Below, one piece after another: positions 41,017-61,729 of a DNA stretch of 64,000 nucleotides. Origin of the DNA: Macrostomum lignano. Lineage: Eukaryota. Made by a program: the position numbers and the translations under genes. The number at the start of each line of letters is the position of its first letter. The first letter of the stretch is position 1. The notes under the pieces were generated by a model. The model was not told where the DNA came from and searched no databases. It saw only the letters and a program-made list of their open reading frames with translations. The stretch is from contig NIVC01001598.1 in assembly GCA_002269645.1 (NCBI GenBank), positions 62,001 to 126,000 on the forward strand. The letters run 5' to 3'.

Positions 41017-43960
41017 TCACAGCCGCTGTTCCAGCAGGCACTCAACGTGCTCGGCCAGCCTCAGAACTCGGGGCATTTTGAATTGCGCCTCGCTGATGTC
41101 CGGGTTCAGCTCCATCATTCTGCGTCGGAGTGTACCAAAAGCTCCCGGTTGCACTTGCACGACCGTCATGGTGTCGATGTCGCCTTCCGATCTGAACAGA
41201 TTGTAGTCCTCCAGCGAGTCGCGCAGCGCCTTGTCGAACTGAAATGTGTTAAGAATATTAGGCTCCCGATTCTACTGCCTACTGTACCAACTGAAGCAAA
41301 CATAAATGCAAGTTCTTGTTTACATGGTTTCCTTGATCGGCGACCTGAAGTGTCAGTCAATTCTATTCTGATAATTTTATTTCACCTGCCGTATGGCAGA
41401 TGTGCAACCGACAACTCAGCCGCAGCTATTGTGTTGTAAGGCTCGTACATCTGAAGGCTCGTACGTCTGTTCAGTCCAAGGACTGGGGGTCGCCGCACAC
41501 ACCCTCAATTACCCCAGCTAATGCGGCACCCATTTTACAACTGGATGAACTGAAGCAATGCAGAGTTAAGTGTCTTGCTCAAGGACACAAAAAACACCTT
41601 TCAGTCGTTAGTCCGACGCTCTAACCACTCGGCTACAACTCCCTGAATAAACAAACTGAATCTAAACAAAGTAAACCATCCAGGCTCCAAAAAAGACTCA
41701 CCACCAACAGCTCATCCTCTACCAACACTCTGGAGCTGTCCAGCTCAACAAAAATGATGTAAAACTTGGTTTCTTTTGACGTTCCGGTGATCGACTCGTA
41801 CAGAAAGCAGTCGGTGGCCGAGAAGTCCACGATCTCGCATCCCAGCCTGCGGGCAGCGAGAGCTACGCAGTTCTGAAGGCTCTTCTCGGTTGTTTTTTCG
41901 ACATGCACGGCCAGAACGTGGGACTTTCTGAAAGTTTCAATTACAAGCGTGCGATCTCTGTTACGAGGTAAAAGCAGTTTGTCAAGGAACACACGTTGGC
42001 CATAATAGTGTATAATATATGCTTGCGTTGACGTTCATCAGTATCCAGGTAGCCCAATTCAATGTCAGTAAAGAAATTTCTTGTAGTTCCTGATATGCTA
42101 CCAAATTGCCAGAAGTTTCTAACGAAAAGCAGAGCTCTATAAAATACCTGTGCGATATCTCGAAGACCGGCGCGCATCCGTCCATCTTAGTCACCTTGAT
42201 TACGTCACCGACACGAAGCCGGAAGCAGTTAAACGAGGTGGAGACAGTCTCGTAGAGCTGGCCAACCTTCAGCTCGTGCGCCAGCAGCGGCTCCCCCAAG
42301 TCATTGCCGTCAGCGTCGATTGGAATGAACTCGACGAAGGAGCCGGACAAGAAAGGATGGTAAGTTTCCGGTCGGTCGTCCGTTTCTAAGTTTAGGTTTA
42401 TTCCGAACAGGCCTTCTGTGCTTATTATGAAAGGACAGAAGGTCGGAACATTTCCGAGGTACTTTTTGAGAAAACGGTAGGGCGACTCAAACGAGCCAGA
42501 CCGAGCGAGCATTACAAACGGGACGTCGGGCCAGGCCTTTTCAAAGAAACCGCTCAAGTCCTTTCCATCGCCGAACAGGGATCTGAGTTGGGCCGCTCGC
42601 TCCGGCTTCGGACTAAGATACTGGTTTAAAAGACTGAGCAACTCTTTGTCCACATCCTTCAGCTTTTCAGCACTGAGCTTGCCGTTCTCAATGTCAGACA
42701 GCACCGAGTCCCAGTTGGAGCTCACGCAGCGCACGAGAGAGATCAGGTTGGTGGGGAAGAACACGTTCACTTCGCCAATCTGCTCGTGCCACAGGGCGAA
42801 CACGGAGTGAACGTAAAATCCCGTGTCAGCGTCGTGAATCTTCTTAAACGCTTCAACTGGCGTCGTGTAAATGTCGACTAAAAAGCATTAAAAAGTGTTT
42901 ACACTCATTAGTTAATAGCGAGCTATAAAAAGTGTATCAGCCCCAACCTGCTGCTGAAAATTGGTATCCCAGCGCTACTCACCAGGAGTGTGAAAATATT
43001 TAGTCAGTGGTGCGATCGGAACACCGAACTCGTTCTGCCTATCTTTGGGTAGATTTCTGACCACAAAAAGCCGTTTAAGCTTATATTGCCTGCCATGGCG
43101 GCTGGCCAGCAGCTCCCTGGTGTAATACACCAGCATGAAGATGGACATCAGCGAACGCTCAGCGATGGGCCGAATCACCGAGAACGTCTTGTTCTTGCCC
43201 GTAGTGCCGCTAGTCTTGAACAGGCAGTCCGGCTGGCCTTTGAAGTAGACGTCCGGCTCGCCACGGTAGGCCAGCTGGTTGTACTTGTCCAGTTCGTTGT
43301 AGTTCCGCACAGGAACTCGGGCCCGAAAGTCTTCGATGCCGCGCACCTCCGCGAAGCCGTGGTCTTGCCCGAAAATCGTCTCGCGACTCTGCTCGACCAA
43401 CTGCATCAGGGTTTGCTGCTGCTTAGCCCGCATCGCGCTGCCGGATTTGTACGCTCTTTTCAGATCCCACACCGAGTACCTGGCCCAGGTGACGCCTAGC
43501 AGTTTCAAAAGTGACAGCATCAAAAAGCCGCGCCAGCCGAGGGTGTTGCAGGGCTGCTGCAGCCGTAGGTATTGGCTCACGACGGCCGCAGTGACTGACA
43601 GAGTGGCCAACACCCCTACAGAAAGAGATGTCACTTTTGAGACTTGAATGAACAGCCTGGAAATGTGCTTAGCTGTATCTCATAAAAAGTTGGGAGCTCG
43701 TTAAAGAGCTCCCAACATGGCCACTGTGAGAAGTGGTAATACGACTGTTTGGTTTCTAGGATGGCCACATTCCCACATTCAGGATTACACGTATATTTAT
43801 AATCCCCCCCATGATTTTTGTCAACATGTTCAAATCGCTTACCGAACGCGGCGAAGGTGAGGGGGCCGCCGGAGAGTTGCAGCATCGCAAAAGCGAGGCC
43901 GGACAGCAGCAGGGCAGCCGCTGCCGTTGCCAAATTCAGCAGCTCTTCGTACGTTCGCAT
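41017..43960 (-). CDS. GH3-domain protein paralogue B; exons 43960-43843, 43615-42983, 42877-42148, 41927-41702, 41238-41017 (642 aa)
   Basis: KTSGTTGKNKTF, STEG, FRLRVGDVI, FKMPRVL; intron positions and phases identical to paralogue A; intact frame. Confidence 0.88.
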
Positions 43961-44704: not shown

Positions 44705-47700
44705 TCACAGGCACCCGTCCAACAGGCACCGCAGGCTGTCTTCGCTCCTGAGAACTCTCGGCATTTTGAACTGAAACTCGCTGATGCCATCATTCCGCCT
44801 CATCATCTGCAGGCGCAGCGCAGCGAACGCCCCCAGTTTCACCTGCAGCACTTGCATCGTGTCGATGCGGCCGCCGACTCTCATCTGGTCGTAGTGTTCG
44901 GAGCTCTCGCGAAGGGTCTGGTCAAACTGTGTGAGAGAGAGGGGGAGAGCTGCATCCAGTCACTGTGGTGGGTCACGACTCACCGCGAAAGTCCCGCCCG
45001 CAAAGTCATCGTTACCAGCTGCTTGTCGTCTTCAGCGAGACGCCTGTCTCCGTCGAGCTCAACGAACAGCGCGTAGTACTTGGTCCCGCGGCAGGTTCCG
45101 GCCACCGGCTCGTACAGAAAGCATTCAGCCGCCGAGAAGTCAATCACGTGACAGTTGAGTCTCTCAGCGGCCAGTAGGACGCAGGATTGAAGGGCGTTCT
45201 CGGTGGTCTTTTCAGCATCAACAGACAGCATATGAGACTTCCTGTACAGTTTTGATAAAAAATGTTGGCAACCAGCGTTAGTCAGCTAATTAGCTTTGCA
45301 GAGGGGATTTTGGCGCTGCCACAAATAAAAGTTAAAATGAATAGGCAAGTGTGTAAGTCATGCCCTGCTCACCCATGAGCACGCACATGCATGCGGATCA
45401 TGGATGAAGGAATAGAAAGGATCCAAAGAGTTTTGAGGTCGCCTAGTATAGAGTGCCAATAAGGATGAAAATCTGAAGTCGATTTTCAGAATCCACCCAC
45501 GCCCTCCGGTCACCAAGCTTTTTAGTCTATGGCACAAGTTGTGGCTAGAATGGTGTACAAAGCCGATGCTCAGAAATATAAGACATTTCACGCTTAGAAA
45601 ATGCATGCATCAAATAAGCAAGACAACATCGCTCAGTCACCAGACTCAGTTGCCGTCGTCGATTCGTCGATACACAACTCCGTAACACCCATGCCATATA
45701 GTCCTTACGTCTGAACAACAACAGCCATGCCACTAAAGTGCACGGTAGCTAATTACAATAACTGCGTTTCTGATGCATCTGTATCCTTCTTTCGTCTGCC
45801 TTTCAAGGACATTCACTCTGCCTGTTTATCACTTATGTTTTTGTCTTTCCGACTCTGCTGCAAGTATCCTGCTCAACTTCTTTTCTCCTTACACAATGCA
45901 ATCAATGTACGTACGGTTACAGTATAGATACAGAAATAAAGTCTTGAGGACGTTTTAAGCATACATGGTATTCGTCCAGCTACATTGGCTACTTGTATTT
46001 TTCTCATGCACTCTATGTATATTTCTGAGCATCGGCTTTGTACACCATTCTAGCCAAAACTTGTGCCATAGACTAAAAAGCTTGGTGACCGGAGGGCGTG
46101 GGTGGATTCTAAAAATCGGCTTCAGATTTTCATCCTTATTGGCACTCTATACTAGGCGACCTCAATACTCTTTTTGAAAGGATCGCTCATCTAAAAGCGA
46201 GTCTATGGCCAAAACCTACTAAAATTGGGATATCCCCCCCATGAATTTCATTGGCTGATGGAATTTAATAGTCCCCCCCCCAAATTTCTTACTGGCTGAA
46301 GCTTGTACGAGGAGGAAATTCCAAAGTAGGTTTAGTAGGTTTTGGCCATAGACTCGCTCTTAGATGAGCGATCCTTTCTATTCCTTCATCCATGATGCGG
46401 ATACGTTACGCAGGCAATGCTCACGCAGGTTTCAGCAAGCATCAATTTGGTCCATAGTGGTTCTATGGTTTCACCCATAGATATTAATATACGTATGACT
46501 GTCTCAAGCAGTGAGGACGAAAGCAAAGCTTCATTTGCAACTGCTGCCGAGGAGCAAGATCAGCTCGAGAATCGTAGACCATATGCTAGACTGCCGAACT
46601 AACGCAAAGGGCTTGTGATCGAAGCGGAGTTTTAACCATGCTAAAATGCTCTTTTTGTTTTTGTTATAGTTGAGCAGATTGCATTTCTGACGGCATCTTG
46701 CAATGGTACCGTGAAATTTGCTCAAAAAATTGCATTACACAGCTGTAACTCATGATTGGGTTTCATAACCGCTATGGACCAAATTGATGCCTGTTGGATC
46801 AAATAAGTGCTGCTGTACCAGCCTTGCTACCATAGACAAAAGCTGCATTAATTTGGCAAGCATATCTCGGATTATATTAAATGCGTGCGAGCCCAATTGG
46901 GCCGCAAAACCTATATTAATGTCATTACTATAAGGGTAGTTAATAACTGCCTTGTTACAAAGCAAAGAATTTTTTCACCTAAATATCTCACCTGTGCGAA
47001 AGCTCGAACACAGGAGCGCACCTGTCCATCGCAACGATCCGAATCACGTCTCCCGAGCGCACTCGGAAGCATTTGAAGGAGGTGAGAACAGTCTCGTAGA
47101 GGCCTCCGACCTCGAGCTCATGAGCCAGTTTTGCTTCACCAACGTCAGAGCCTCCCGCGTCAACGGGGACGAACTCCACGAAGGAGGGCGAGAGCATGGG
47201 ATTGTAGCGCTCTGGCACATTGCAATCAACTTCCTTCACGTTGATGTTTATGCCAACAAAGCCCTCGCTTCCACTCAGCATAGACCCGAATGTGGGAAGA
47301 TTGCCCAGGTACTTTCGCAGGTACCGGTAGGAAGACTGGAACGAGCCGGAGCGAGCCAGCATCACGCACGGAATGTCCGGCCATGCCTTCTCAAAGAAGC
47401 CGCTCAGGTCTTGTCCGTCTCCGAACAAAGCTCGAAGCTGTGCAGCTCGCGCTGGTTTGGGACTGAGGTGGCTGTTCAGAACTGCGAGCAGCTCGGGCTC
47501 GATCCCGACTTTGTCCGCGCTTAAACGGCCTCTCTCGATGTCGCTGAGCACCGAGTCCCAGTTGTCAATCACGCACCGAATGAAGGTGCTAAGAGTGGTC
47601 GGGTAGAAGGCGCTGACATCTCCGATTCTGTCGTGCCACAGGGCGAATACAGCATGAATGTAGAATGCAGCCTTGGCGTCGTGAACTCTTTGAAACGGTT

Positions 47701-48708
47701 CTACCGGAGTTGTGAGTATGTCACCTGCAGTGTTTTGGTTTATCCAATAAACAGCAATGCTAGACACAAAGATGCCATTTGTGGTAGTATATGGTAGAAA
47801 TAGAATGGAATAGCCTGGAATATCATAACTCTGAATAAGGCAGAAAGCCTATTGGTACAGCAAATAGCTCGGAAAACAAACCTCGGGACACAACGAACTT
47901 TGAAAGCGGTCCGGTCGGCACGCCGAATTCGTTTCTTTTGTCTGCTGAATGCACCGACGTCATCAGTTAGCGAGCCATGCGGCACCTGCGCCCAGACTTC
48001 CGAGTGAACTCTTCAAAACAGAACTTTGTCGCCAGGAAAGCCGTTGCGAAGTCCTTCAAGAAGCGTCTGGCTCCGGGAAAAGTTTTATTTTTGCCAGTGG
48101 TGCCGCTGGTTTTAAAGAGAAATTCGACTCTACCCGGGAAGAACACGTTTGGCTCGCCTCGGTAGGCCAGCTGGTTGTACTTGTCCAGCTCGGCATAGTC
48201 GCGAACCGGCACTCGAACTCGGAAATCCTCGATTCCACGGATCTCAGCGAACCCGTGATCGCGGCCGAAAACGGTTTTCCTGCTTCGTGCCACGTGCTTC
48301 ATGAGAGTGATGTGCTGCATCGCTAGCATCCTGCTGCCAGACCTGTACGCCCGCTTCAGGTTCCACACCGAGTACCTGCCTAGAGTAGCGGTGAGCAGCC
48401 GTGTCTTAGCCATCTGGATGAACCCATTCCAGCTCAGAGTGTTGCACGGCCTCATTTGACGCAAATACTGACAAGTCAGTGCGATCGAAGTGGCGGCACT
48501 GCAGATAATTCCTGAAACAAAACAAAATGTTTGTTTTAACGCGTTGTTTAACGCGTCAAGTTCAAGCAAGCTTCAGTCACAGCTTACCCAGAAAGCCGAG
48601 ACCGTATAGGGAGCACTGACTGGAGAGCAGAGCTGCAACTGCAGTGGCAATCAGGCCAACACATCCAGCCGAAATCAGGTTGAGAACGGTCGCGTACGAC
48701 TGAGCCAT
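44705..48708 (-). pseudogene. GH3-domain paralogue C with an in-frame TAA in exon 2; exons 48708-48588, 48511-47882, 47724-46992, 45241-45016, 44926-44705
   Basis: Same five-exon structure; TAA at 47969-47967 aligns with Leu in paralogue B and the frame continues after it (…NEFGVPTGPLSKF). Confidence 0.75.
45385..46400. repeat. Inverted repeat pair (~45385-45580 vs ~46020-46400) with a nested 48-bp-arm hairpin (46176-46378) in intron 3 of GH3 C
   Basis: Reverse-complement match read directly. Confidence 0.8.
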
Positions 48709-50400: not shown

Positions 50401-51269
50401 AGTGCTCCTTTCGAGATGCGTGTCAACTATACTCGTTGAAAATTCTTTCAGCATACAACATAAATTTGAATAGTACAGCAACTTGCCTTTTTAATTATTG
50501 CAGTCAATCAAGTCGGTCTCTCAGGATTCAGTTAACTTCAAATTCAATTCACTCGACAGATGCGAGCTGGCCTACACACACCTACCACAGGGTTAACTAT
50601 TCGGTCACGAAGACTCATTCACGAGCTCGTCTGAAAAGCAGCTTTGGTCTTTAAGGGTTCTGTGTTATCGCTCTGCAGTCTGTCAATGTTGGCCAAACTA
50701 ACCAAACAAACTGCAGCAAAAGGCGTGGATTGGCAGTCGTTAGTTGATAAAATCTGATAGACCAAAAGGATTAAAAGTTAAAAATAATCTGTCCCTGCTT
50801 GCACTTAATCTTGAAGCCACGCAGCTGTTTGTCTGTCTGTCTGTCTGTCTGTCATGTGCTTCAGTCGCACCTACTTGACCTGTAAATGGCTGACAGCAGC
50901 CAAGAGAAACATAATAAATTTTTTTAAGAATACGAATAAGAATAAGAATTTAAGAATACCAAACTGTACAGTCAAAACAGTCTGGTAAAATTTCACAACT
51001 AGCCTAAGTACAGAACGGAGGGGGAGAGAGAATTATAGACACGCTCCACCCCATTGAAGCTGCGTATAAGAGCGATCTTATCTTACGATGGCTTTATAGA
51101 ACAAGGCCATGCATGTTAGTTCCCGCACTGGCTGCTGGGTGGCCTCATCCTTGAGGTGCGCTGTCCTTGGAGGAGAGCAGTAACCTTAAATTTCGGTGGG
51201 CAATAACCCTATTAAAATTATCATGCATCTTCCATACGAGTTACACTCTTACAATTTCACTCTGACACT

Positions 51270-51825
51270 ACTACGTATCGTGCAGATAAGTGTCGATTTT
51301 GGAGGTGAGGTGGGTGTCAGAGCCAATGCAAATTCAACGCCTATCTAAATACATTAGACCGATTCTAATTGGTCCAGAGTCATTATGTGAGACATTTATG
51401 CTCTCATGTAAAATCTATACATGTAATCAGTGTACACTGTATCGTACAGAAGCGACGACCAGTACAATAATTAACGCTCCGTCGTTGTTGTACGTAGAAG
51501 CGCCCCCACCCTGCAGCATTGGTGTACGCAGAATTAACTGTCCATATACCAAAAATTGGCAGAATTAACGCGCGCCGACCCACCCCATAACTGTCCATAT
51601 TATTACTTGTCCATATTTACTGTCCATCCCAAAATTGGTGTACGCACAGAATTGTAGCGTCCGCCCACCCCATAACTGTCTATATTATTACTTTTCCATA
51701 TTTACTGTCCATATATACACCCAAAATTGGTGTACGCACAGAATTGTCTGTGACCCCTACAAAATTGGCGCCCCCGCGCGCGGAGGCATGATGAGTCAGT
51801 CAGCCAGTAAATCGTCGCTGTCCAC
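51270..51825 (+). repeat. Left terminal inverted repeat
   Basis: First 200 bp match the reverse complement of 61221-61420 with 2 mismatches; inner part more diverged. Confidence 0.92.
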
Positions 51826-52432
51826 CCCTCTGCCCTGCGCTGGCCGCTATAGCTACCTGCAGCAGTGTTACGCAACAACCCGGTCGAGCCACAATGCTAA
51901 CTTTATAGCCAGACACGTCATCAAGGTCTGAAAACACAAACTTCTATGCATGAAATATTCTCGTTTTACAAGATGCCAAACCAACTTTGTTCAGACAGCA
52001 AACTATAAATAAGAAAATTTGGATTCTCGGCCGTTTATCTAAATTCACCAAGTTCAATTAACAATCCAATCATGTGGAAAACGCAGTGTTTGACAAGCAA
52101 TTTTTGGTTGCCAAAGCACAAGAGGATCAGACCGACAAAGCATGAACTGCCAACAACTTTGAGCAAGGATTTCAACACACCTCCAACGCCAGCACCGAAA
52201 ATAGGTACAAGTCTCATTTTTTCTGGAATCCTCGATAACGACAACACCGTAAAAAGCTCGTTAACATGTAATTAAAACAAAAACTTATTGAGACTCTCGG
52301 GTATATAAGCACCAGCCCGGAGCATCTGCAAGCACCCGTACCTGCAAATTTTTCTCGGATTCTCGGCAGTTTTTCAAGCTCGAATAACATCCCCACCACT
52401 AGTGCGAACAACGCAGCAGTGCTTGACAAGAA

Positions 52433-52852
52433 ATGAGCTGGATTTCCAGAGACTACCCCCTATTTTCGAACGAGGAAAAAGACGAATACGAGGCCTTGAA
52501 AATATCTGCTGACTGGTTGTGCATTTGCCACGGCAAACCGATTTCCGAGCGATTAGTCACCTTCAATGCCAAGGTCGAGGAAATTGATCAAGGCCCCTAC
52601 GACAGCCAAGACTACGCAGCAGCCAGGATAAATGAGCAACTACGGGACAAAATGAGATTCAAAGCTGATTTAGCACGAATGGAGAGATTACTGGCTCCGA
52701 TACTAAGTGAAGAGCATCGCCAAAAAATACGTTTTCGGAACCATCAAGATCTGTATAATCCGTCGTGGGAGGAGCAACAAAAGATTTGGAATTTTTGGCT
52801 GCCAAAGCACAAGAGGAACAGGCCGCCAAAGCTTGAACTACCATCAACTTGA
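52433..52852 (+). CDS. Element ORF of unknown function (139 aa); its C-terminus is paralogous to 52072-52275
   Basis: ATG-initiated ORF; shared NFWLPKHKR segment. Confidence 0.5.
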   Translation: MSWISRDYPLFSNEEKDEYEALKISADWLCICHGKPISERLVTFNAKVEEIDQGPYDSQDYAAARINEQLRDKMRFKADLARMERLLAPILSEEHRQKIRFRNHQDLYNPSWEEQQKIWNFWLPKHKRNRPPKLELPST

Positions 52853-53064
52853 AGCAAGGATTTCAGCACACCTCCAACGCCAGCACCCGAAAATAGGAAC
52901 AAAAGGTTCATTTTTTCCGGAATTCTCGATAACGACAACTCTGTAAAAAGCTCGTTATCGTGTGATTAAAACAAAAACTTATTGAGACTCTCGGGTATAT
53001 AAGCACCAGCCCGGAGCATCTGCAAGCGCCCGTACCTGCAAATTTTTCTAAACAGACAAGAGAC

Positions 53065-53775
53065 ATGGAGACAGTGCAAGACTTCAACTGCGTCAAGCGA
53101 GAGCTGCTGGCACTCAAACCGCGAGGTCCGAGCTTCAACGGGGTTGAAACGTTTGACATTGAATATGACGAACAGGGACCTCTCTACTTGGCCAATGCGG
53201 TCCCTGCTTTGATCGTCAAGGGCGTGCGTACTGACAACGAAGGTCGCGAATTCATCATCATTGCACAAAAACACATTGAAAGCTGCATACCCTACACTTT
53301 CAACACTGTGGCGGAGCACCTTTCCAGCGAAAGTCTAGCTCTGCTGGGCTACAACCCAGCGTTTGGAGGTGACAGTGCAGCGTTTGGGCTGGCTCACGAC
53401 TTTAAAATGTACGACCAAAACGGACTGCCTGTAGAGGATTACAAAAACAAGAGCGGCTACTACAGGATTCTGTTTACTCTCGACACGGCCGTGATTCGAG
53501 ACGCTGTTTTGACCGCAATGCCAAAAATTCAACAGCTACAGTTTGTCGAAGAAGCCAAACAGGCATTCGATCGTTGCTATTGGACGCCACCTCCAAAAAT
53601 CAAGGTAGGCGCCAAGAAAGTAAGCAAGAAAGCAAAGAAACCACCAAAGCTTGTCAAGGAGAAGCTGCCAAAGGTGCCTAAAAATCAGGCCAGAAAGCGA
53701 CAGCATCAATCGAAACTAGTAGCAGCCAACGAATCAAAGAAGCGGTCGAAAGCCCCAAGAAGGATACGAAAGTAA
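53065..53775 (+). CDS. Element ORF (236 aa), candidate OB-fold ssDNA-binding protein with a Lys-rich tail
   Basis: Clean ORF behind TATATAAG; beta-rich pattern loosely like viral gp2.5-type SSBs (by eye only). Confidence 0.45.
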   Translation: METVQDFNCVKRELLALKPRGPSFNGVETFDIEYDEQGPLYLANAVPALIVKGVRTDNEGREFIIIAQKHIESCIPYTFNTVAEHLSSESLALLGYNPAFGGDSAAFGLAHDFKMYDQNGLPVEDYKNKSGYYRILFTLDTAVIRDAVLTAMPKIQQLQFVEEAKQAFDRCYWTPPPKIKVGAKKVSKKAKKPPKLVKEKLPKVPKNQARKRQHQSKLVAANESKKRSKAPRRIRK

Positions 53776-53794
53776 AAACTGCCGAAAAATCTAC

Positions 53795-54274
53795 TTGCAG
53801 AACGTCGAGTGTGTGAACCGAGTGTTTTGCGCGAAATGGAGCCGCATGCCTGACTTGGACTGGGCGAGCGCACGGACATTTCGCAGACCAAGAGCTCTTA
53901 TCAATTTGCGAATAGGGAAATGTACAATCAACATTTTTCAGCGTTCTTTGTCTGCAATTGTATTCGGTTGTCGCTCCATCAACCAAGTTTTGCGTCTTTT
54001 TCCTCAATGTAAACCAATTTCTGTTGTTGTTACCACTAGTACTTACCGCGCTGAAGTAGACAGATGGCCAAACTTTTTCCAAATTGCATACTCCGGGTCC
54101 CGCTGGGTGAAGTGGGAGTGTGAAGTTTTCAATGGAATAGTAATAAAGTCTCCATTTCGCAATGCTAAATGTTTATTATGCGGAAAGAATGGCCGCCTTG
54201 TTTTCCTTGGAATACGAAACTTTAAAGAGCTCTGTCAAATGTACGATCATGTGACTAGCGTTTTGCATGTCTAA
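53795..54274 (+). CDS. Element ORF, candidate divergent TATA-binding-protein (TBP)-fold protein
   Basis: LQNV, TINIF…VFGCRS, WECEVFNGIVIK and NGRLVFLG…ELCQMYDHVTSVL are colinear with the TBP core; first in-frame ATG only at 53846. Confidence 0.55.
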   Translation: MQNVECVNRVFCAKWSRMPDLDWASARTFRRPRALINLRIGKCTINIFQRSLSAIVFGCRSINQVLRLFPQCKPISVVVTTSTYRAEVDRWPNFFQIAYSGSRWVKWECEVFNGIVIKSPFRNAKCLLCGKNGRLVFLGIRNFKELCQMYDHVTSVLHV

Positions 54275-54414
54275 TCCATGTAGCTGTTGCGTAACTTTAC
54301 TGCTTTACCACTGTACCGAATTTGTATGTACGTACAAGCTGCTATGAAATTGTCTATAAATATATTGTGCATAAATTGCAGTGCACTGCAACCAACATCT
54401 TTTTGCTAAACAAA

Positions 54415-54771
54415 ATGACAAACGGAATCTCCAGACTATGTTCTTGTCGCGGCGAGCTCGCAGAGCTCGCCAAAGCCCGTCCCACTCTTCGGCGGGCCAT
54501 TATTCGAGGTGCAGGCAAGGAACTGATTCATTGTCTCTGTGAATTGAGTCACAACGTGCTCCGGGGAAATATCGATCTTTCTCCGAAACAGTATCTACGA
54601 TTAAAGCGATACAGAAGATCGTTGCGTGAATTGGCAGACACAAAATTGTCTATAAATAGGAAGAAGAATATGCTTCTCTCGAATCCTCAAGTTGGTGGTT
54701 TTCTACCCATCCTTGCATCCGTTGCTGCACCGCTAATATCAAGCCTGTTTGGCGGACTACTTGGTCGCTAA
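54415..54771 (+). CDS. Conserved small Polinton protein with a C-terminal amphipathic helix (118 aa)
   Basis: CLCELSHNVLRGNIDL…QVGGFLPILASVAAPLISSLF pattern typical of Polinton/adintovirus ORFs. Confidence 0.7.
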   Translation: MTNGISRLCSCRGELAELAKARPTLRRAIIRGAGKELIHCLCELSHNVLRGNIDLSPKQYLRLKRYRRSLRELADTKLSINRKKNMLLSNPQVGGFLPILASVAAPLISSLFGGLLGR

Positions 54772-54772
54772 A

Positions 54773-55423
54773 ATGAATAAATACGTTGTTGTACCAGAAG
54801 AAGAATTTAATAGACTAAGTCAAGGCGCACCCCGAGAAATTGCATCCAAAACAGAATATGAAAAACTCATTGAATACAACACTCAACTCCAAAATAAACT
54901 AAGTCAGATCAAGCAAAAGAAGAGTAATCGTTTTCCTGAACGACAACAACGTGTTTGGGACATGCTGACAGAAAGATACCCAAATTTGGAGTACAACAAG
55001 TCGTGGGAAATTGTATTTGATGGAAAAACCTGGCCAGGAAGCAATATTTTCGATCTATTGAAGGAGATTACATCGAATGAAAGGCGCGACCGCCCAAGCC
55101 CAAAATATAGTACCGCTTTTTGGGCCCTGACCGAAGAGGTAGATATTGCAAAAGCTCTACAAGGACGACGCCAACAAGAAGAAGTCAGTGTGAAAAAAGA
55201 AGTCGGCACGGATCCGGATCGAGACGATTTTTTAGTCGAGCAAGCAATTGGAACTAATGATTTCTACAACGACTTCCACAAAGACCAAGCCAGTGGCCTG
55301 AATGAAATTAAAAAATATGAAGATCGTGGCAGCGATGCCTACAGGCATGCTTCATACCAACTTCGCGAACCAAAGAGGCGGCAGAAACCAGCAGTAAAAT
55401 ACGAGACGTTAAAAAAACTATAA
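54773..55423 (+). CDS. Conserved Polinton hypothetical protein (216 aa)
   Basis: KYVVVP start and WEIVFDGKTWPGSNIFDLL motif recalled from Polinton ORFs. Confidence 0.6.
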   Translation: MNKYVVVPEEEFNRLSQGAPREIASKTEYEKLIEYNTQLQNKLSQIKQKKSNRFPERQQRVWDMLTERYPNLEYNKSWEIVFDGKTWPGSNIFDLLKEITSNERRDRPSPKYSTAFWALTEEVDIAKALQGRRQQEEVSVKKEVGTDPDRDDFLVEQAIGTNDFYNDFHKDQASGLNEIKKYEDRGSDAYRHASYQLREPKRRQKPAVKYETLKKL

Positions 55424-55560
55424 ATAGAAATCATTTTCATGATTTATAATCTGTTTTTGGATCATGGGTGCCGCAGCTGTAACTTCAAAGCTTTGCTCAG
55501 ACAAACCGTCTGTGGAGTTCAAGTGTAATTACTCATGCTGTGCATCGAATCTAGTTGCGA

Positions 55561-56628
55561 ATGAGGGTGAAAACCGCTCTTCGGAGAGTGTACGAACAGG
55601 GGGACGCCGCTTTTACAAATGCTGCCCGTGTATATCAGGAGGCCAAACGGCTGGTCCCCTCCCTGACGAGACGCCAAACAGACGAATGGCTGAAGACCCA
55701 ATCGAGCTACACCCGGCACAAGAGGGTTAAAAGAAAATTCCAAACCGGAAAAGTAATGTCAGGAGGCTTCATGGAAACTGTGCAAGCGGATTTGATGGAC
55801 ATGTCACGATACGAACAATGGAATGATGGTCATCGATATATTCTAGTTGCAATTGACGTGCTTAGTAAATTGGCTTTTTGTCAGTCAATAAAATTGAAAA
55901 GCGACACTCCAAAGGCTTTTGAAAGCATGATCAAAGACTTCCCCATTAAGCCTTTATATCTACACGTTGATCGAGGTACCGAGTTTTATAACAATCGCAT
56001 GCAGAACTTACTGAAAGCCCATAATATCAAAATGTACAGTACAAACTCTGTATACAAGGCAAATATGGCTGAAAGGCTGATTAGGACTCTCCGAAAACGT
56101 TTAGCTCGCTACTTTGAGCATAAAAACACGTGGCGTTGGATCGACTATTTGCCAATATTGGTTAAAAGTTACAACAACACAGTACACTCTACTATTGATA
56201 TGAAACCTTCGAGTGTCGGTCTGCACAATCAAAAAGAATTGTGGGAAAAGCTCTACAAGGATCCTGAATATGATGAACCAGTTTACCAAAAAGGGGACTT
56301 TGTCAGAATTTCAAAATCTCGTCGAGCCTTTGACAAGGAAGCATACGATATGTACAGCGAAGAAGTTTACGTTGTGTCTCAAGTATGCCCGGGACCGCCT
56401 CATTTTTATCGCATTTCCGACCTATCTGGAGAACAAATCGAGGGTCGATTCTACTATAATGAACTTTCAAAGACGGTTCGACCGGACCGCTTTGTTATAG
56501 ACAAAATTCTGCGTCGCAATGTCATCATCAATGGTGTCGCTCATCATTTCGTTAGTTGGCGCGGCTATCCCGAGTCGTTCAATGCATTTGTACCAGTTGA
56601 GGAAGTTATAAATATAAGACAAGGATGA
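55561..56628 (+). CDS. Retroviral-type (rve) DDE integrase with C-terminal chromodomain-like region
   Basis: QADLMDM, IDVLSK, HVDRGTEF and KANMAERLIRTLR (D,D,E), plus IDKILRR…FVSWRGYPESFNAFVP; intact frame. Confidence 0.95.
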   Translation: MRVKTALRRVYEQGDAAFTNAARVYQEAKRLVPSLTRRQTDEWLKTQSSYTRHKRVKRKFQTGKVMSGGFMETVQADLMDMSRYEQWNDGHRYILVAIDVLSKLAFCQSIKLKSDTPKAFESMIKDFPIKPLYLHVDRGTEFYNNRMQNLLKAHNIKMYSTNSVYKANMAERLIRTLRKRLARYFEHKNTWRWIDYLPILVKSYNNTVHSTIDMKPSSVGLHNQKELWEKLYKDPEYDEPVYQKGDFVRISKSRRAFDKEAYDMYSEEVYVVSQVCPGPPHFYRISDLSGEQIEGRFYYNELSKTVRPDRFVIDKILRRNVIINGVAHHFVSWRGYPESFNAFVPVEEVINIRQG

Positions 56629-56662
56629 ACACACATACACTCGAAACGTGTAGTATATTACA

Positions 56663-57817
56663 ATGCATCTATTCCTACCTAGCAATGCGTGCGTTGAGCA
56701 CTATCCTGAGAATAATTCGGCACATTATAGCATTAATTTGCCCGACACCCTCCACTTTCCGAATCATGAAGTCTGCATCGAACGGATCTACTTTTGTAAA
56801 GAATTCAAAACCGTCCCCGATAATCGAATGGTTGATGTCCTGACCAACGCTCCCGAGGATGAAGTGATTGACATTGAGGTGAGAGAAAAACCCGCCTCCA
56901 CGTATAAACAGTTTGCGTCGGTTTCTCTCGCCGCGGGGCTATCAACAGCCAACGAAGTGGTTGATGCAATCATCGCCGATCTAAAATATGAGCAAGACGA
57001 TAATGCGATGATTTGCATTGAGCGTTCACAGGAAGGCCAAATTTCAATTGTGAACAAATCATGGTATGGTGCGAACATTAGGCTGTCCAGTAATGTGCGT
57101 AGCATGTTTAAAAAGGTTGATGACGCTGGAAATAAATCAAATATCGAAGTAACGACTTTTTTATTAAACCCAAGAAATTCGTTAGTATTCGCTATAGAAT
57201 TGGAGTCCTCCTCCTCCATAGAGAGTCCGATGACTCTAACGTTTGAAAAGAGTGTCTGGCCTTCTAGAACGTCACTGCGGATTGCTAAAGGATTCTACCG
57301 CACGCCTGACGAGCTCTTAAATTATGTTAATGGAGCGCTTTGGAGCGTCGTTTCAAAGCTCCCAATAAGTCCAGCGACGAGAGTGGATGCATTCCACTAC
57401 AACCCTTTTCTGAACCGGTGTGAGTACAAACCCATTGAAAACATTTTATTCGACATTGGAGAGCTTGCTGCCATTCTCGGCTTTCGCGAAGATGTTTTCA
57501 ATGAAACTCCAAAGACCGCTAAACGACCAATCGATTTAACAAATGGTGTACAAACTATGTACATCTATTCAAATATTGTCGACTCTGCCATTGTTGGAGA
57601 CGTCAAAGTCCCCCTGCTTGGGGCAATTCCTTTGAATGAAAAGGTATACGGCGAACGAGAGTACTACGAGTTTGTCAATCCATCCTACTTACCGTTGGTG
57701 AAACACCCATTCAAAACCATTGAGGTGCAAATCTGTGACGATATGGGCAAGTTAATGGATCGGATTCTTCGAGGCAAAACTGTTTTATCGATCAACATTC
57801 GTGAAATTAAGCTATAA
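56663..57817 (+). CDS. Polinton minor capsid (penton) protein (384 aa)
   Basis: LPSN..YPEN N-terminus; MYIYSNIV…VGDVKVPLL…F.NPSYLP…TIEVQI C-terminus. Confidence 0.8.
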   Translation: MHLFLPSNACVEHYPENNSAHYSINLPDTLHFPNHEVCIERIYFCKEFKTVPDNRMVDVLTNAPEDEVIDIEVREKPASTYKQFASVSLAAGLSTANEVVDAIIADLKYEQDDNAMICIERSQEGQISIVNKSWYGANIRLSSNVRSMFKKVDDAGNKSNIEVTTFLLNPRNSLVFAIELESSSSIESPMTLTFEKSVWPSRTSLRIAKGFYRTPDELLNYVNGALWSVVSKLPISPATRVDAFHYNPFLNRCEYKPIENILFDIGELAAILGFREDVFNETPKTAKRPIDLTNGVQTMYIYSNIVDSAIVGDVKVPLLGAIPLNEKVYGEREYYEFVNPSYLPLVKHPFKTIEVQICDDMGKLMDRILRGKTVLSINIREIKL

Positions 57818-57861
57818 ATAAAGAAGTTTTCACGAATAAAAGGTAGCAACTGATCGACAAT

Positions 57862-58203
57862 ATGCCTTCAATCTTGATCGGAGGAGCTTTACCGGTATTT
57901 TCCGGTGCACAGCGCGGCAACGGCCTGTTTGGCAGCATTGCCCGATTTGCCCTGCCAATTTTAAAGAGTTTTGGCAAAAATATTCTTCGCCACGGAACAC
58001 GAGCCCTAGCTACAACAGTTAGCGACACACTCGATCAAGGCGGGAACTTGAAAGAAGCGGCATTGCGTAACTCTGTCCAGGCAGCTAAAGATGCTTTCAA
58101 GGACACAGTCGCACAACGAGGTAGCGGCAGACAAAGACGAAGAAAGATGACTAACAAAAAACGAGAAAAAGACTGCAGCATTCTGATATTTTCGACTCTA
58201 TAA
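57862..58203 (+). CDS. Small basic amphipathic virion-type protein immediately upstream of the MCP (113 aa)
   Basis: QRGNGLFGSIARFALPILKSFGK helix, QRGSG motif, basic tail. Confidence 0.7.
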   Translation: MPSILIGGALPVFSGAQRGNGLFGSIARFALPILKSFGKNILRHGTRALATTVSDTLDQGGNLKEAALRNSVQAAKDAFKDTVAQRGSGRQRRRKMTNKKREKDCSILIFSTL

Positions 58204-58272
58204 ATAAAAAAACCCGTGCCAATAACTGATCTGTCTATTAGAGCACCACACTAAGCCGCTGTTGAAAGAAAA

Positions 58273-59554
58273 ATGACTGAGTGCCTGTGTACAAAGTCGG
58301 AATTCGAGCTTTTGCTCCTCGCGCACACCAAATTGCTGCAATTAGCGCCACCACTGAAGAAGTTCACCCTGTTGCCAGTGTTGAAAATGCCAGCGTGGTC
58401 GAATTTAGGATTGTTGGTGGTGAGACGTTTATCGATCTTAACGACATTGACCTCGAGATTAAGGCCCGCGTTAAGCAGTCTAATGGTACAAATCTTGCTG
58501 CTGATTCGAATGTTGCGCCGGTCAATTACGTCCTTGAAAGCATGTTTAAAAACGTCACGTTGACAATCAACGGGACACACGTAGAGTCGAGCAATAACAA
58601 CCACGCTTACAAGGCCTATATTCGCACGTGTTTGAATTACGGACACGATTCAAAAACCAATCAACTGAGAATGATGGGCTACGCAAAGGACGCTGGAGGT
58701 CAAATGGCTGTGGTTGGAAATCCTGGCTTTGTAGCCCGCAAGGCGATGGCGGCAAACTCACGCACCTTTCACCTTTATGGACCTCTTAGTTTAGACTTTT
58801 TTGTTACCAACGACCGAATGCTACTGCCATACACTGATATGGTAATTACGCTGACCATGCACAATTCCGGCTTCGTTCTGGAAAACCACGCGGACGGGGT
58901 TGATGCGCGGCTAGTACTCGAGAGTGCCAAACTACATGTGCGCCGCGTCAAGGCAAACCCCCAATTGGCATTGGAGATTGAAGAACAACTAGGCAAACAG
59001 AATGCAATCTATCCGATTGAGCGACTTGTTGTGCACAATACTTCAGTGGCTGGCGGTGTTCGGGACATGTCAATCAATAATATATTTCCTGAACAAAAGC
59101 CTAAACTAGTGGTTGTTGGCATGGTGAACAGCGGCGCATACAACGGTGTGGCTACACATAACCCGTTTAATTTTGAACCGTTTGGGCAGACAGTGTCGCT
59201 CTGTATAAGGACGGAGTCAGTCTGTGTGGACAACCGTTTACTCCTCGATTCGGTGTTCATAACTATGCTCGCGAGTATGCCATGCTACTAAAAAGCCTAG
59301 GAAAGATGAATCGGGACCTGGATATTGACGTATCATATTCCGACTATGGAGCTGGCTACTGCTTCTTCGCCTGGAATCTCATGCCCGACATGGAGCTGGG
59401 CGGGCATAGCATGCCTCGCGAGCGAGGGAATCTGACGCTACAAATAAAGTTTTCTGCTGCCTTGGCCGCAGGAATCAACGTGTTGGTGTTTGGCTACTTT
59501 GACAATACTGTGCAAATCACTCGCGGTCGTCAGGTTATTCTAGACTACGTGTAG
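58273..59554 (+). CDS. Double jelly-roll major capsid protein (~427 aa once two 1-nt frameshifts are repaired)
   Basis: CLCTKSEFEL start, FIDLNDI, HNPFNF, VALYKDG, LTLQIKF; shifts at the T-run 58310-58313 and near GGG 59184-59186. Confidence 0.85.
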
Positions 59555-59604
59555 AAACAAACATCTCTTTTTTATTCTCGAATAACGACCATATTCATGC
59601 CGAT

Positions 59605-60029
59605 ATGAATAGTCTAGATATATTAGAACGTCTAATACTACCTGTCCCTGTTCGAGTAACACCAGTTGACAGGATTCCGCAGCCTGTTTATCCTGCTGCA
59701 ATCTACCAGGCACTCACTGGGCTTTAATTTGTCTTCATGCCGATGAGAGCGTGACATTTTTTGACCCCTTGTGTATCGATCCTGTGCCAGATTTATTAAA
59801 GTTGTGGATCGCAAAGTATGTCCCTGTGGAGGTGGCCATGAACCGGCATCCTGTACAGCATCCGCTGAGTGTGACCTGCGGGGCTCATGTAATATTTGTG
59901 GCTGAAAAACACTTTCTGGAGGGTCTGTCAATTGAAAAAATATTGCGCGACTGTTATAGCACAAATCTTTACGAGAACGACTTGATGGTGCAGAATCACT
60001 GTCTACAAATAAAGCAGCATCATCCATAA
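59605..60029 (+). pseudogene. Adenain-like cysteine protease, frame-disrupted near 59700
   Basis: MNSLDI…PVDRIP…PAAI in one frame; PGTHW…FFDP…QHPLSVTCG (His/Asp/Gln/Cys) in another. Confidence 0.8.
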
Positions 60030-60031
60030 AT

Positions 60032-60682
60032 ATGATTGGGCGGCCTATCAAAATGTATCAAACAATAGACCCCGATTCTTTAAAATTTGCCCCCAAAACG
60101 TCGGCAATTTTTGCTGGGGTGGCTCAAAGCGGCAAGACCACACTTGTGAAAAACCTATTGAGACAAGAATTTTTTCAAGATCCGAAGCCGATTCGCGTTG
60201 ACTGGTTTGGCCACTATCCGGATCCTGAACTGTTTGAATTGCCGTACCCTGTAAATTTTCGTTCGTGTACATTTGATCCTGAACAATATGTCCCTGAACC
60301 AAATATTCTGCTTGTCGTCGACGACCAAATGCATGTCATGGAAAAGAGTGGCGCTTTTACAACTTTTTTCACGCGCAAAGTCTCCCACGTGGGGTTCCGA
60401 CTTTGGTATCTTGTGCAAAACCTGTTTGCAAAGGGTAAGGAGCACCGAACTCAGTCGCTCAATTCTAACTACCTTGTTTTATTCCGCAATGTACGGGATG
60501 CCAGCACAGTGTCTCATATTGCAAGGCAGCTGGTCCCCACTAATCCAAAAAGTTTTGTCAAAACGTATGAGGATGCTACTCGCGACCCCTACTCATACTT
60601 GATTGTAAACTGTTTGCAAAATGCTCCTGCTCGCTATTATTCAAACGTTTTGGGTCGTCACCCAATTGTGTATGCTAAATAA
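60032..60682 (+). CDS. FtsK/A32-like genome-packaging ATPase (216 aa)
   Basis: Walker A GVAQSGKTT, Walker B LLVVDD, LVQNLF, NSNYLVLFRN. Confidence 0.92.
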   Translation: MIGRPIKMYQTIDPDSLKFAPKTSAIFAGVAQSGKTTLVKNLLRQEFFQDPKPIRVDWFGHYPDPELFELPYPVNFRSCTFDPEQYVPEPNILLVVDDQMHVMEKSGAFTTFFTRKVSHVGFRLWYLVQNLFAKGKEHRTQSLNSNYLVLFRNVRDASTVSHIARQLVPTNPKSFVKTYEDATRDPYSYLIVNCLQNAPARYYSNVLGRHPIVYAK

Positions 60683-60840
60683 ATATACGTATCAAAGCTC
60701 GGCTGGCTTTTTGTGTAAATATATATACGCCTTTTGAAAACTTATTTGGGAGAGGGGTTGGTGGATGACGTAATTGTCTCGGAGTGTCGACGAGGGCTGA
60801 ATTCTAGAGAATGAAGTATGGAAGGAGTGGATATAACAGT

Positions 60841-61420
60841 GTGGATAGCGGCGATTTACAGCGGCTGACTCATCATGCCTCCGCGCGCGGGGGGCGCCAA
60901 TTTTGTAGGGGTCACAGACAATTCTGTGCGTACATCAATTTTGGGTGTATATATGGACAAGTAATAATATGGACAGTTATGGGGTGGGCGGACGCTACAA
61001 TTCTGCGCGTACACCAATTTTGGGATGGACAGTAAATATGGACAAGTAATAATATGGACAGTTATGGGGTGAGTGGGCGCTCTAATTCTGCCAATTTTTG
61101 GTATATGGACAGTTAATATGGACAGTTAATTCTGCGTACACCAATGCTGCATTGTGTGGGGATGGGGGCGCGCGCGTTTCTATACGTACAACAACGGTGA
61201 AGCGCTAATTATGCGTACTATATTGTACTAGTCGTCGCTTCTGTACGATACAGTGTACACTGATTACATGTATAGATTTTACATGAGAGTATAAATGTCT
61301 CACATAATGACTCTGGACCAATTAGAATCGGTCTAATGTATTTAGATAGGCGTTGAATTTGCATTGGCTCTGACACCCACCTCACCTCCAAAATCGACAC
61401 TTATCTGCACGATACGTAGT
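60841..61420 (-). repeat. Right terminal inverted repeat
   Basis: Reverse complement of the left TIR. Confidence 0.92.
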
Positions 61421-61729
61421 GACACTGTCACTCTTACACAATTACACACACGCTGTCAGTGACACTTTAGTAAGTCACAAACCCTAGATTCACAGATACA
61501 AACACAATCTTCACTAATCTTTATAGCTTTCAGATAAATAGATTCACAGGTCCTTAATTTACAGATTTTTATGACCAATTTACCATGTTCAAGCTGGTCA
61601 ACAGCACCATAAGCCGTTTGGCTGCCTTCAGAGATACATTACCGATAGCATAAAATTGTACTTACTGAGTGACGTCATTGCATGCGACCCAATTTCGACA
61701 TGCGCTTGTGCTTCATAGCACCAGAGAGA

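Follow-up and report, generated by a model that had tools for sequence, protein, structure and literature searches.

A likely built-in late-gene switch in a flatworm Maverick element

Does the short motif that recurs ahead of the viral genes in a Macrostomum lignano Maverick act as a promoter, and if so, which protein reads it? The timing of capsid-gene expression in Mavericks is poorly known. No promoter study of these elements was found in a literature search, and a search by terms found no promoter analysis in the Polinton papers covered, whose supplements could list TBP-like genes or motifs. The window, which is the whole stretch of 64,000 nucleotides analyzed here, contains one such element (family A), with the terminal inverted repeats and the 6-bp target duplication of Mavericks/Polintons. 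The original prediction proposed that the motif and a TBP-like reading frame together form a self-encoded promoter-recognition circuit. The element was mapped as follows:

51264-51269 and 61421-61426: 6-bp target-site duplication flanking the element
51270..61420, + strand: Maverick/Polinton-type element, 10.15 kb, without a protein-primed polymerase
51270..51799: left terminal inverted repeat
52433-52852: ORF downstream of the TATATAAG box at 52302
53065..53775, + strand: ORF236, a conserved 180-aa domain of unknown fold plus a lysine-rich tail; predicted first exon of a TBP-like fusion
53605..53800, + strand: phase-0 GT..AG intron, predicted from sequence
53801..54274, + strand: TBP-like frame, open from 53723, with its first ATG (53846) inside the fold
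55464..55730, + strand: conserved 88-codon ORF beginning Met-Gly, in a different frame from the integrase, whose start it overlaps
55561..56628, + strand: rve integrase with a weak chromodomain match
56663..57817, + strand: likely minor capsid protein, no family match
58273..59554, + strand: likely major capsid protein, broken near 58310 and 59183 in the window copy
59606..60029, + strand: adenain-type protease, broken near 59700 in the window copy, without its own box
60032..60682, + strand: P-loop packaging-type ATPase, with a conserved AATAAA over its stop (60678)
60865..61420: right terminal inverted repeat

The integrase scored 34.5 bits against the Pfam rve cut-off of 32.6, and the protease homologue of another lineage (C) exceeded the Pfam Peptidase_C5 cut-off. 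Pfam scores of the packaging-type ATPases were sub-threshold only. The capsid-type proteins had no family match in sequence searches; the 56663..57817 product is named a likely minor capsid protein from gene order. In other copies the major-capsid-type gene has 427 codons. No protein-primed family B polymerase lay between the terminal repeats of the window element or of the mapped copies of family A and its sister family B, and such a polymerase was found in other elements. No TFIIB-like gene was recognized in the window element.

All seven predicted copies of TATAAATA (52004, 54355, 54651, 55419, 56607, 57813 and 58199) were found, and all lie on the plus strand, with none on the minus strand of the element (51270-61420). 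The 64-kb window has 11 copies against 1.75 expected; outside the element, its remaining 53,850 bases hold just four. TATATAAG was likewise where it had been placed, at 52302 and 52996, but the two copies are not independent, because they are part of one ~690-bp tandem duplication (88-93% identical); family B has a single copy. An eighth box, the conserved variant TACAAATA, precedes the ATPase gene and was absent from the earlier list. The boxes, all on the + strand, are:

52004..52011, + strand: TATAAATA box, followed by a short remnant of the left-end duplication (ATG at +68)
52302..52309, + strand: TATATAAG, predicted early-type box, duplicated copy, before the ORF at 52433-52852
52996..53003, + strand: TATATAAG, predicted early-type box before ORF236
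54355..54362, + strand: late-type box; ORF118 ATG at +60
54651..54658, + strand: late-type box within ORF118; ORF216 ATG at +122
55419..55426, + strand: late-type box over the ORF216 stop, whose register differs from that of family B; the first ATG follows at +45
56607..56614, + strand: late-type box within the integrase 3' end; minor-capsid-type gene ATG at +56
57813..57822, + strand: late-type box that shares bases with a conserved stop and with AATAAA; ORF113 ATG at +49
58199..58208, + strand: late-type box with AATAAA; major-capsid-type gene ATG at +74
60004..60013, + strand: variant box TACAAATA, found with AATAAA and retained in family B; the conserved start of the ATPase follows at +49

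The box at 52004 was retained in all four other A copies, and the box at 52996 has a GGGTATATAAG context that family B and the capsid-less polymerase elements share.

Against an AT- and codon-matched null (synonymous-codon plus intergenic shuffle, 1000 shuffles), the enrichment of TATAAATA held, with six sense and no antisense copies compared with a null mean of 0.16 (p=0.001). Family B gave the same six and zero against 0.46. Conservation held as well: the six late boxes and the variant are all retained in family B, one of them despite a change of reading frame, although only ~50% of synonymous sites are identical between the families (third-position identity 0.41-0.57, intergenic 0.27). The boxes are conserved, strand-specific motifs.

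The distance of 49-142 nt to the next ATG, which had been claimed for every TATAAATA box, applies to annotated gene starts only. At three of the seven boxes an ATG lies at +18 to +20, and the integrase, at +142 from the 55419 box, is not the next start, since the conserved 88-codon ORF comes first, at +45. Over ten blocks, the median box-to-start distance was 53 nt (56 of 60 boxes), and a gene start was met first by 7/7 boxes in A and 7/7 in B, compared with 0.32-0.39 of random places. ATGs at +8 to +27 from the boxes occurred at chance level (18 vs 18.2 expected), and from +36 on they were depleted (6 vs 29.7; Fisher p=1.5e-4). Depletion only from +36 fits a putative Pol II start near +30. 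The interval from +20 to +41 showed no initiator peak. The promoter reading, with predicted start sites, is supported by the enrichment, by the conservation and by the geometry of the start codons, and the boxes are likely core promoters of the late genes, namely those for particle building, integration and packaging.

The motif had also been described as a compact stop, poly(A) and TATA cassette. Three ORFs of the window copy do end in CTA-TAA-ATA, two of them running into AATAAA, but the stop register is conserved in only one of the three, the minor-capsid-type gene; the 216-codon ORF stops in a different register in the sister family, and the 113-codon ORF continues beyond the box there and in three of four other copies. 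AATAAA overlaps three of the seven late boxes in both families (57813, 58199, 60004), so the cassette gains little from the comparison and appears mostly incidental. Tight gene packing accounts for the overlap of boxes with stops and AATAAA, and some of its copies may also serve as poly(A) signals. The 16-mer reported as repeated does occur at 54347 and 54643, but it is absent from the sister family, which rules it out as an extended promoter element.

The TBP-like frame is predicted to fold like TBP, as a two-lobed saddle. Its model, from a folding alignment that included real TBPs, had a pLDDT of 84.5, and the top PDB matches were all TBP (Foldseek, E 3.6e-9, TM 0.75-0.81), with BcRF1 and UL87-type proteins among the fold matches. 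A profile without A/B-like rows scored the protein at 34.2 bits, compared with 8.8 for the best of 500 shuffles. Searched alone, the window protein had no Pfam or PDB sequence match and fell below the PF00352 gathering score, while the family B copy reached 22.7 against the cut-off of 22.9. Atlas contained no match, and only four homologues, without DNA context, were found outside the genome; viral_contigs and metagenome_contigs contained no related loci. With its long branches and open forks, the tree of TBP-like proteins gives no basis for statements on origin or co-evolution. Aligned to the reference positions of PMC12529657 (Table 1), the DNA face of the protein keeps two of the four DNA-kinking Phe and one of the two Asn. 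Both acidic stirrup Glu, residues that bind TFIIB (PMC7221094), are retained, one of them as the only invariant column across 17 rows.

The TBP-like frame has neither an ATG nor a box of its own and is likely spliced onto the upstream gene, ORF236. The ends of the predicted intron are conserved in 20/20 A loci and 4/4 B loci (length 196-206 in A, 66-67 in B). No pyrimidine tract occurs in the A/B intron. In another lineage (E), 8/8 copies have a donor-like site together with an acceptor, preceded by a pyrimidine tract, where the TBP-like frame begins; both sites are in phase 0 in 4/8. No RNA data set was on record for the element. The contigs of three presumed-RNA runs, which hold no information on transcript starts, ends or strand, contained no splice joint, and two of them traverse the predicted intron unspliced. 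A programmed frameshift into the frame was ruled out, since the offset varies among A copies and a stop precedes the frame in some; a non-ATG start may be used. For ORF236, no match was found in PDB or Atlas, and a single-stranded-DNA-binding fold was rejected (model pLDDT 31.6; 1.3% probability when profiles were compared with the gene upstream in lineage E).

Lineages C, E and F of the same genome each have a TBP-like gene, those of C and F scoring above the PF00352 cut-off. Each also has its own box, chosen by eye: YTTAAGAA in C (7, 7 and 7 per block), TATAAGY in E (5, 5, 4 and 5) and YTATAARA in F (4 and 4). The sense-strand count of TATAAATA was zero in all nine of these blocks. In 8 of the 11 TBP-bearing blocks, an unbiased 7-mer scan ranked the lineage box in its top five. 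YTATAARA, a motif class common to F and G, was also enriched in lineage G, one of whose two blocks had TATAAAA as a top 7-mer; the available stretches of G gave no match to a TBP-like gene. A different box in each TBP-bearing lineage favors an element-encoded reader, and the proposed self-encoded circuit thus gains comparative support from four lineages, against which stands the canonical TATA of the window box. These four lineages, in related blocks, are too few to prove co-evolution.

We favor, with modest confidence, the reading in which the boxes are late-gene core promoters that the element's TBP-like protein recognizes in cooperation with host RNA polymerase II. Host TBP would initiate at the TATATAAG box before ORF236, and the predicted intron would fuse ORF236 to the TBP-like exon. 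The fusion product would bind the late boxes, contact host TFIIB with its retained acidic stirrup and direct transcripts to begin ~30 nt 3' of the boxes. We infer early/late timing, splicing, box binding and start sites from the sequence. A private late code, in which each lineage's TBP variant reads only its own box and recruits host TFIIB and Pol II, is a tentative extension with a little less than an even chance of being right.

Several other explanations bear on the same evidence. The boxes might be ordinary TATA boxes read by host TBP, with the TBP-like protein in another role, such as a TFIIB or repressor decoy. Host TBP could read TATAAATA, because it is a canonical TATA that fits the ordinary consensus, and the DNA face of the protein has diverged further than its TFIIB stirrup. 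TATA-type enrichment also occurs in lineage G, where no TBP-like gene was found, and the Foldseek matches include wild-type TBP on single-base TATA variants, e.g. G(-26) and T(-30). We nevertheless judge this explanation rather unlikely: it leaves unexplained why the late genes of a lineage use one variant that changes between TBP-bearing lineages (including the non-canonical CTTAAGAA), and why late TATAAATA differs consistently from the left-end TATATAAG, which the lineages have in common.

It is very unlikely that a helper virus polymerase reads the boxes and initiates inside the motif, although virophages use giant-virus promoters in this manner, poxvirus TAAAT and baculovirus TAAG are late promoters with such initiation, TAAAT lies within the A/B box and TAAG within those of C, E and F, and the element has no polymerase gene. 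ATGs at +8 to +27 are not depleted, which argues against initiation in the motif, and the predicted spliceosomal introns and AATAAA indicate nuclear Pol II. The motif could instead be mainly a 3'-end signal whose promoter look is a by-product. The AATAAA over three boxes in both families and the conserved AATAAA that ends the last gene suit this explanation, but in each of the families three boxes are free of AATAAA, two boxes are located within coding sequence, and the register of the stop is not conserved. The boxes of C, E and F, which are without an AATAAA core, stand at the same distance from starts; we hold this explanation to be most improbable. Chance, AT-richness or codon bias would suit a motif that consists of A and T only and whose composition places stop codons within it, but the matched null, the strict strand bias and the conservation at near-saturated synonymous divergence refute this explanation and leave it a negligible likelihood.

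If the reading with a self-encoded TBP and matching boxes is true, the element would have an early/late program, which would support a true viral cycle and explain how capsid genes are kept quiet in integrated copies. Under a private code, co-resident elements would be transcriptionally insulated, and the system would amount to the herpesvirus late switch reduced to a minimum of one protein. With four natural pairs of protein and box, this one genome would be a ready test of how TBP specificity changes.

The window element resembles Mavericks/Polintons (adintoviruses) in its terminal inverted repeats, 6-bp duplication, rve integrase and predicted genes for a protease, ATPase and capsid-type proteins, and differs from them in having no polymerase gene. 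It has a predicted intron, unlike vertebrate Mavericks, which are described as intronless in PMC8097293; for related MELD viruses, a figure legend names a TBP-like gene (PMC8502044). The predicted saddle fold is shared, at 16-20% identity, with cellular TBP/TRF (Pfam PF00352) and giant-virus TBP-like proteins. According to a passage in PMC7221094, most TBP-bearing viruses also encode TFIIB and have lost the acidic stirrup.

The vTBP of beta/gamma-herpesviruses (KSHV ORF24, EBV BcRF1, HCMV UL87), whose late box is TATT, offers a likeness in its virus-encoded TBP fold, dedicated box before structural genes, canonical early TATA and use of host Pol II (PMC7498053; PMC12529657). It is one domain within a protein of ~750 aa that belongs to a six-protein complex, whereas the Maverick protein is a ~160-aa core; no genes for such a complex or for a Pol II-binding N-terminal domain were recognized in the 10-kb element. 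Herpes vTBP keeps all four Phe and both Asn (PMC12529657, Table 1). It lacks the TFIIB-binding Glu, whereas the Maverick protein keeps them, is short of two of the Phe and is likely joined by splicing to an unrelated domain. The late box of the window is a canonical TATA, unlike the herpes TATT, differs from TATATAAG and is lineage-specific. In mavirus-type virophages, a single motif precedes most genes of a small integrated virus and matches that of the giant-virus helper. The mavirus reader is the helper's cytoplasmic machinery, whereas the window element combines a Pol II-like geometry with a candidate reader encoded on the element itself.

The TATAAATA-type TATA-like motifs preceding the particle-building genes (late boxes) are real, conserved and of late-promoter type. 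They belong to an element whose features are as follows:

51270-61420: 10.15-kb Maverick/Polinton-type element, bounded by ~530-bp terminal inverted repeats and flanked by a 6-bp target duplication
53065-53775, plus strand: ORF236, the predicted first exon
53605-53800: putative intron
53801-54274, plus strand: TBP-like frame

All motif occurrences listed in the original prediction were found in the sequence. TATAAATA occurs seven times on the sense strand of the element and never on its antisense strand, and four times in the 53,850 bases of the window outside it. The enrichment held against an AT- and codon-matched null preserving proteins, codon usage and intergenic composition: the late block has six boxes vs a null mean of 0.16 (p=0.001, 1000 shuffles). 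Conservation across copies was likewise borne out. Between family A (the window element and its close copies) and its sister family B, third-position identity is 0.41-0.57 and intergenic identity 0.27; all six late boxes are kept in family B, as is the variant box TACAAATA before the ATPase gene. Five late boxes and the variant match at 8/8 positions in the alignment, while the sixth is present in B at a position shifted by the aligner. At one late box the upstream gene reads across in a different frame, yet the box is retained; therefore, selection acts on the DNA.

Ten blocks contain 60 boxes, four of which have no long ORF within range; for the remaining 56, the median distance from box to start was 53 nt. 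ATGs were at chance level 8-27 nt past the box (18 vs 18.2 expected) and depleted from +36 on (6 vs 29.7 expected), with p-values that overstate independence, since the ten blocks are related. This pattern fits a transcription start near +30, not one within the motif. Downstream of the boxes, the sequence shows no initiator peak. Behind the box at 55419, a conserved small ORF (55464-55730) overlaps the integrase start; it begins with Met-Gly, contains a cysteine, and its product may be myristoylated, as that motif would allow. If this ORF is used, integrase translation would depend on leaky scanning. The protease gene lacks a box of its own, and its start codon overlaps the stop of the capsid gene (L030:5687 in family B; L100:6461 in lineage E, another TBP-bearing Maverick lineage), which suggests that protease translation is coupled to capsid on the capsid mRNA.

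The proposed cassette of stop codon, poly(A) signal and TATA box is largely incidental. Among three CTA-TAA-ATA endings, only that of the minor capsid gene has the same register in family B; ORF113 reads through the box in family B and in 3/4 other A copies. The 16-mer is not conserved, and the two TATATAAG boxes, predicted early-type boxes, represent one duplication. In both families an AATAAA overlaps three of the seven late boxes, the variant included, and in B one box more; the stop of the last gene is overlapped as well. These sites may have a dual use.

The TBP-like frame alone had no match in Pfam or among PDB sequences, and a family B copy scored 22.7 against a Pfam cut-off of 22.9. 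Its AlphaFold2 model (pLDDT 84.5) has a TM of 0.75-0.81 to solved TBPs. The folding alignment included true TBPs, and therefore a separate profile without A/B-like rows was built; with it the frame scored 34.2 bits, whereas the highest of 500 shuffles reached 8.8. Both TFIIB-stirrup glutamates (role as described in PMC7221094) are retained, but only two of four phenylalanines and one of two asparagines.

The fold starts upstream of the first ATG, and the frame has no box; it would be expressed by splicing onto ORF236. Codon 180 of ORF236 is followed by a GT, and an AG lies at 53800; both occur in all 20 A loci (in phase 0 in 15 of them) and all 4 B loci, with variable spacing. Lineage E shares this layout: each of its 8 copies has a donor-like site and an acceptor with a pyrimidine tract. 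In 4/8 both sites are phase 0, and in one copy the acceptor is itself an in-frame stop. No splice joint at the putative A/B intron was found in four runs of contigs, whose RNA status is a guess, and two of these cross it unspliced. At one family B copy (L110:527-1606), ORF226 and the TBP-like frame form a single 359-codon frame, which may be an assembly error.

The frame has 91 matches in the genome of the flatworm Macrostomum lignano, with ~20 near full length at at least 94% (family A) and ~20 at 76% (family B). The window element encodes an rve integrase (family match) and capsid-, protease- and ATPase-type genes, labelled by their position in the gene order and by partial family matches; its capsid and protease genes are broken, and a polymerase gene is absent from its 10.15 kb. 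Capsid-less 9-10 kb elements with a protein-primed polymerase share terminal sequence with it (window 51270-51330; L071:3031, L067:4634, L081:7278), and may supply its replication in trans. Among them, C566 has 19 terminal bases in common with it, and C491 shares an inner 23-base block. The family A left end carries a ~690 bp tandem duplication (52099-53049; a further repeat in copy C2246), and that of family B a Fic-domain gene (L029:7630-8409, Pfam 52.9 bits) absent from A. Beside the element, the minus strand carries two GH3-family genes of the host in tandem (41982-43520 and 46988-48455).

The polymerase-bearing Mavericks of the genome divide into further lineages. Clear TBPs are encoded by lineages C (83 bits) and F (70 bits); that of E is divergent (E 4e-10, local profile). 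Their late blocks carry YTTAAGAA in C (7, 7, 7), TATAAGY in E (5, 5, 4, 5) and YTATAARA in F (4, 4), with the same spacing to starts, and no sense-strand TATAAATA. These motifs were first picked by eye; an unbiased scan placed the lineage box within the top five in 8/11 blocks. Lineage G is also enriched for YTATAARA, with no TBP-like match in the stretches examined. In A, B, C, E and the capsid-less elements, TATATAAG lies upstream of genes that are at the left end or non-structural. The pattern resembles an early box that is read by the host and shared, plus lineage-specific late boxes. In lineage C the TBP gene (L048:6822-7899) overlaps part of an exonuclease-like ORF. It starts at an ATG of its own behind a late-type box, which would permit positive feedback, unlike in A/B/E; the gene order is the same in lineage F, but there the two do not overlap. 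In several lineage E subfamilies (L104:3042-4097, L105, L106) the TBP-like frame extends to 344-473 codons, and the E copy C4619 has a separate P-loop ORF after it, resembling a deoxynucleoside kinase.

The element's TBP-like protein is a credible self-encoded reader, and we lean towards the late boxes being read by it together with host Pol II. Alternatively, host TBP would read them and the viral protein would be a decoy. The canonical box of the window lineage favours this reading, which we consider rather unlikely; because of that same canonical box, promoter identity is much more secure than identity of the reader. Reading by a helper polymerase disagrees with the ATG pattern as regards a start within the motif and is very improbable, a box serving mainly as a 3'-end signal is slightly less probable still, and the late-block count leaves chance next to no probability.

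A figure legend on related viruses names a TBP-like gene (PMC8502044 and preprint). Term search found no promoter analysis in the searchable text of PMC8097293, PMC10748475, PMC11131425, PMC11296320 or 10.64898/2026.06.19.733378, and literature searches likewise turned up none. With its own TBP-like protein as reader, the window system would work like the herpesvirus vTBP, a TBP-fold protein paired with the TATT late box, as described in PMC7498053 and PMC12529657. However, the element is not a member of that system: no genes for the vTBP partner proteins were recognised in it, and residue retention in its protein shows the opposite pattern.
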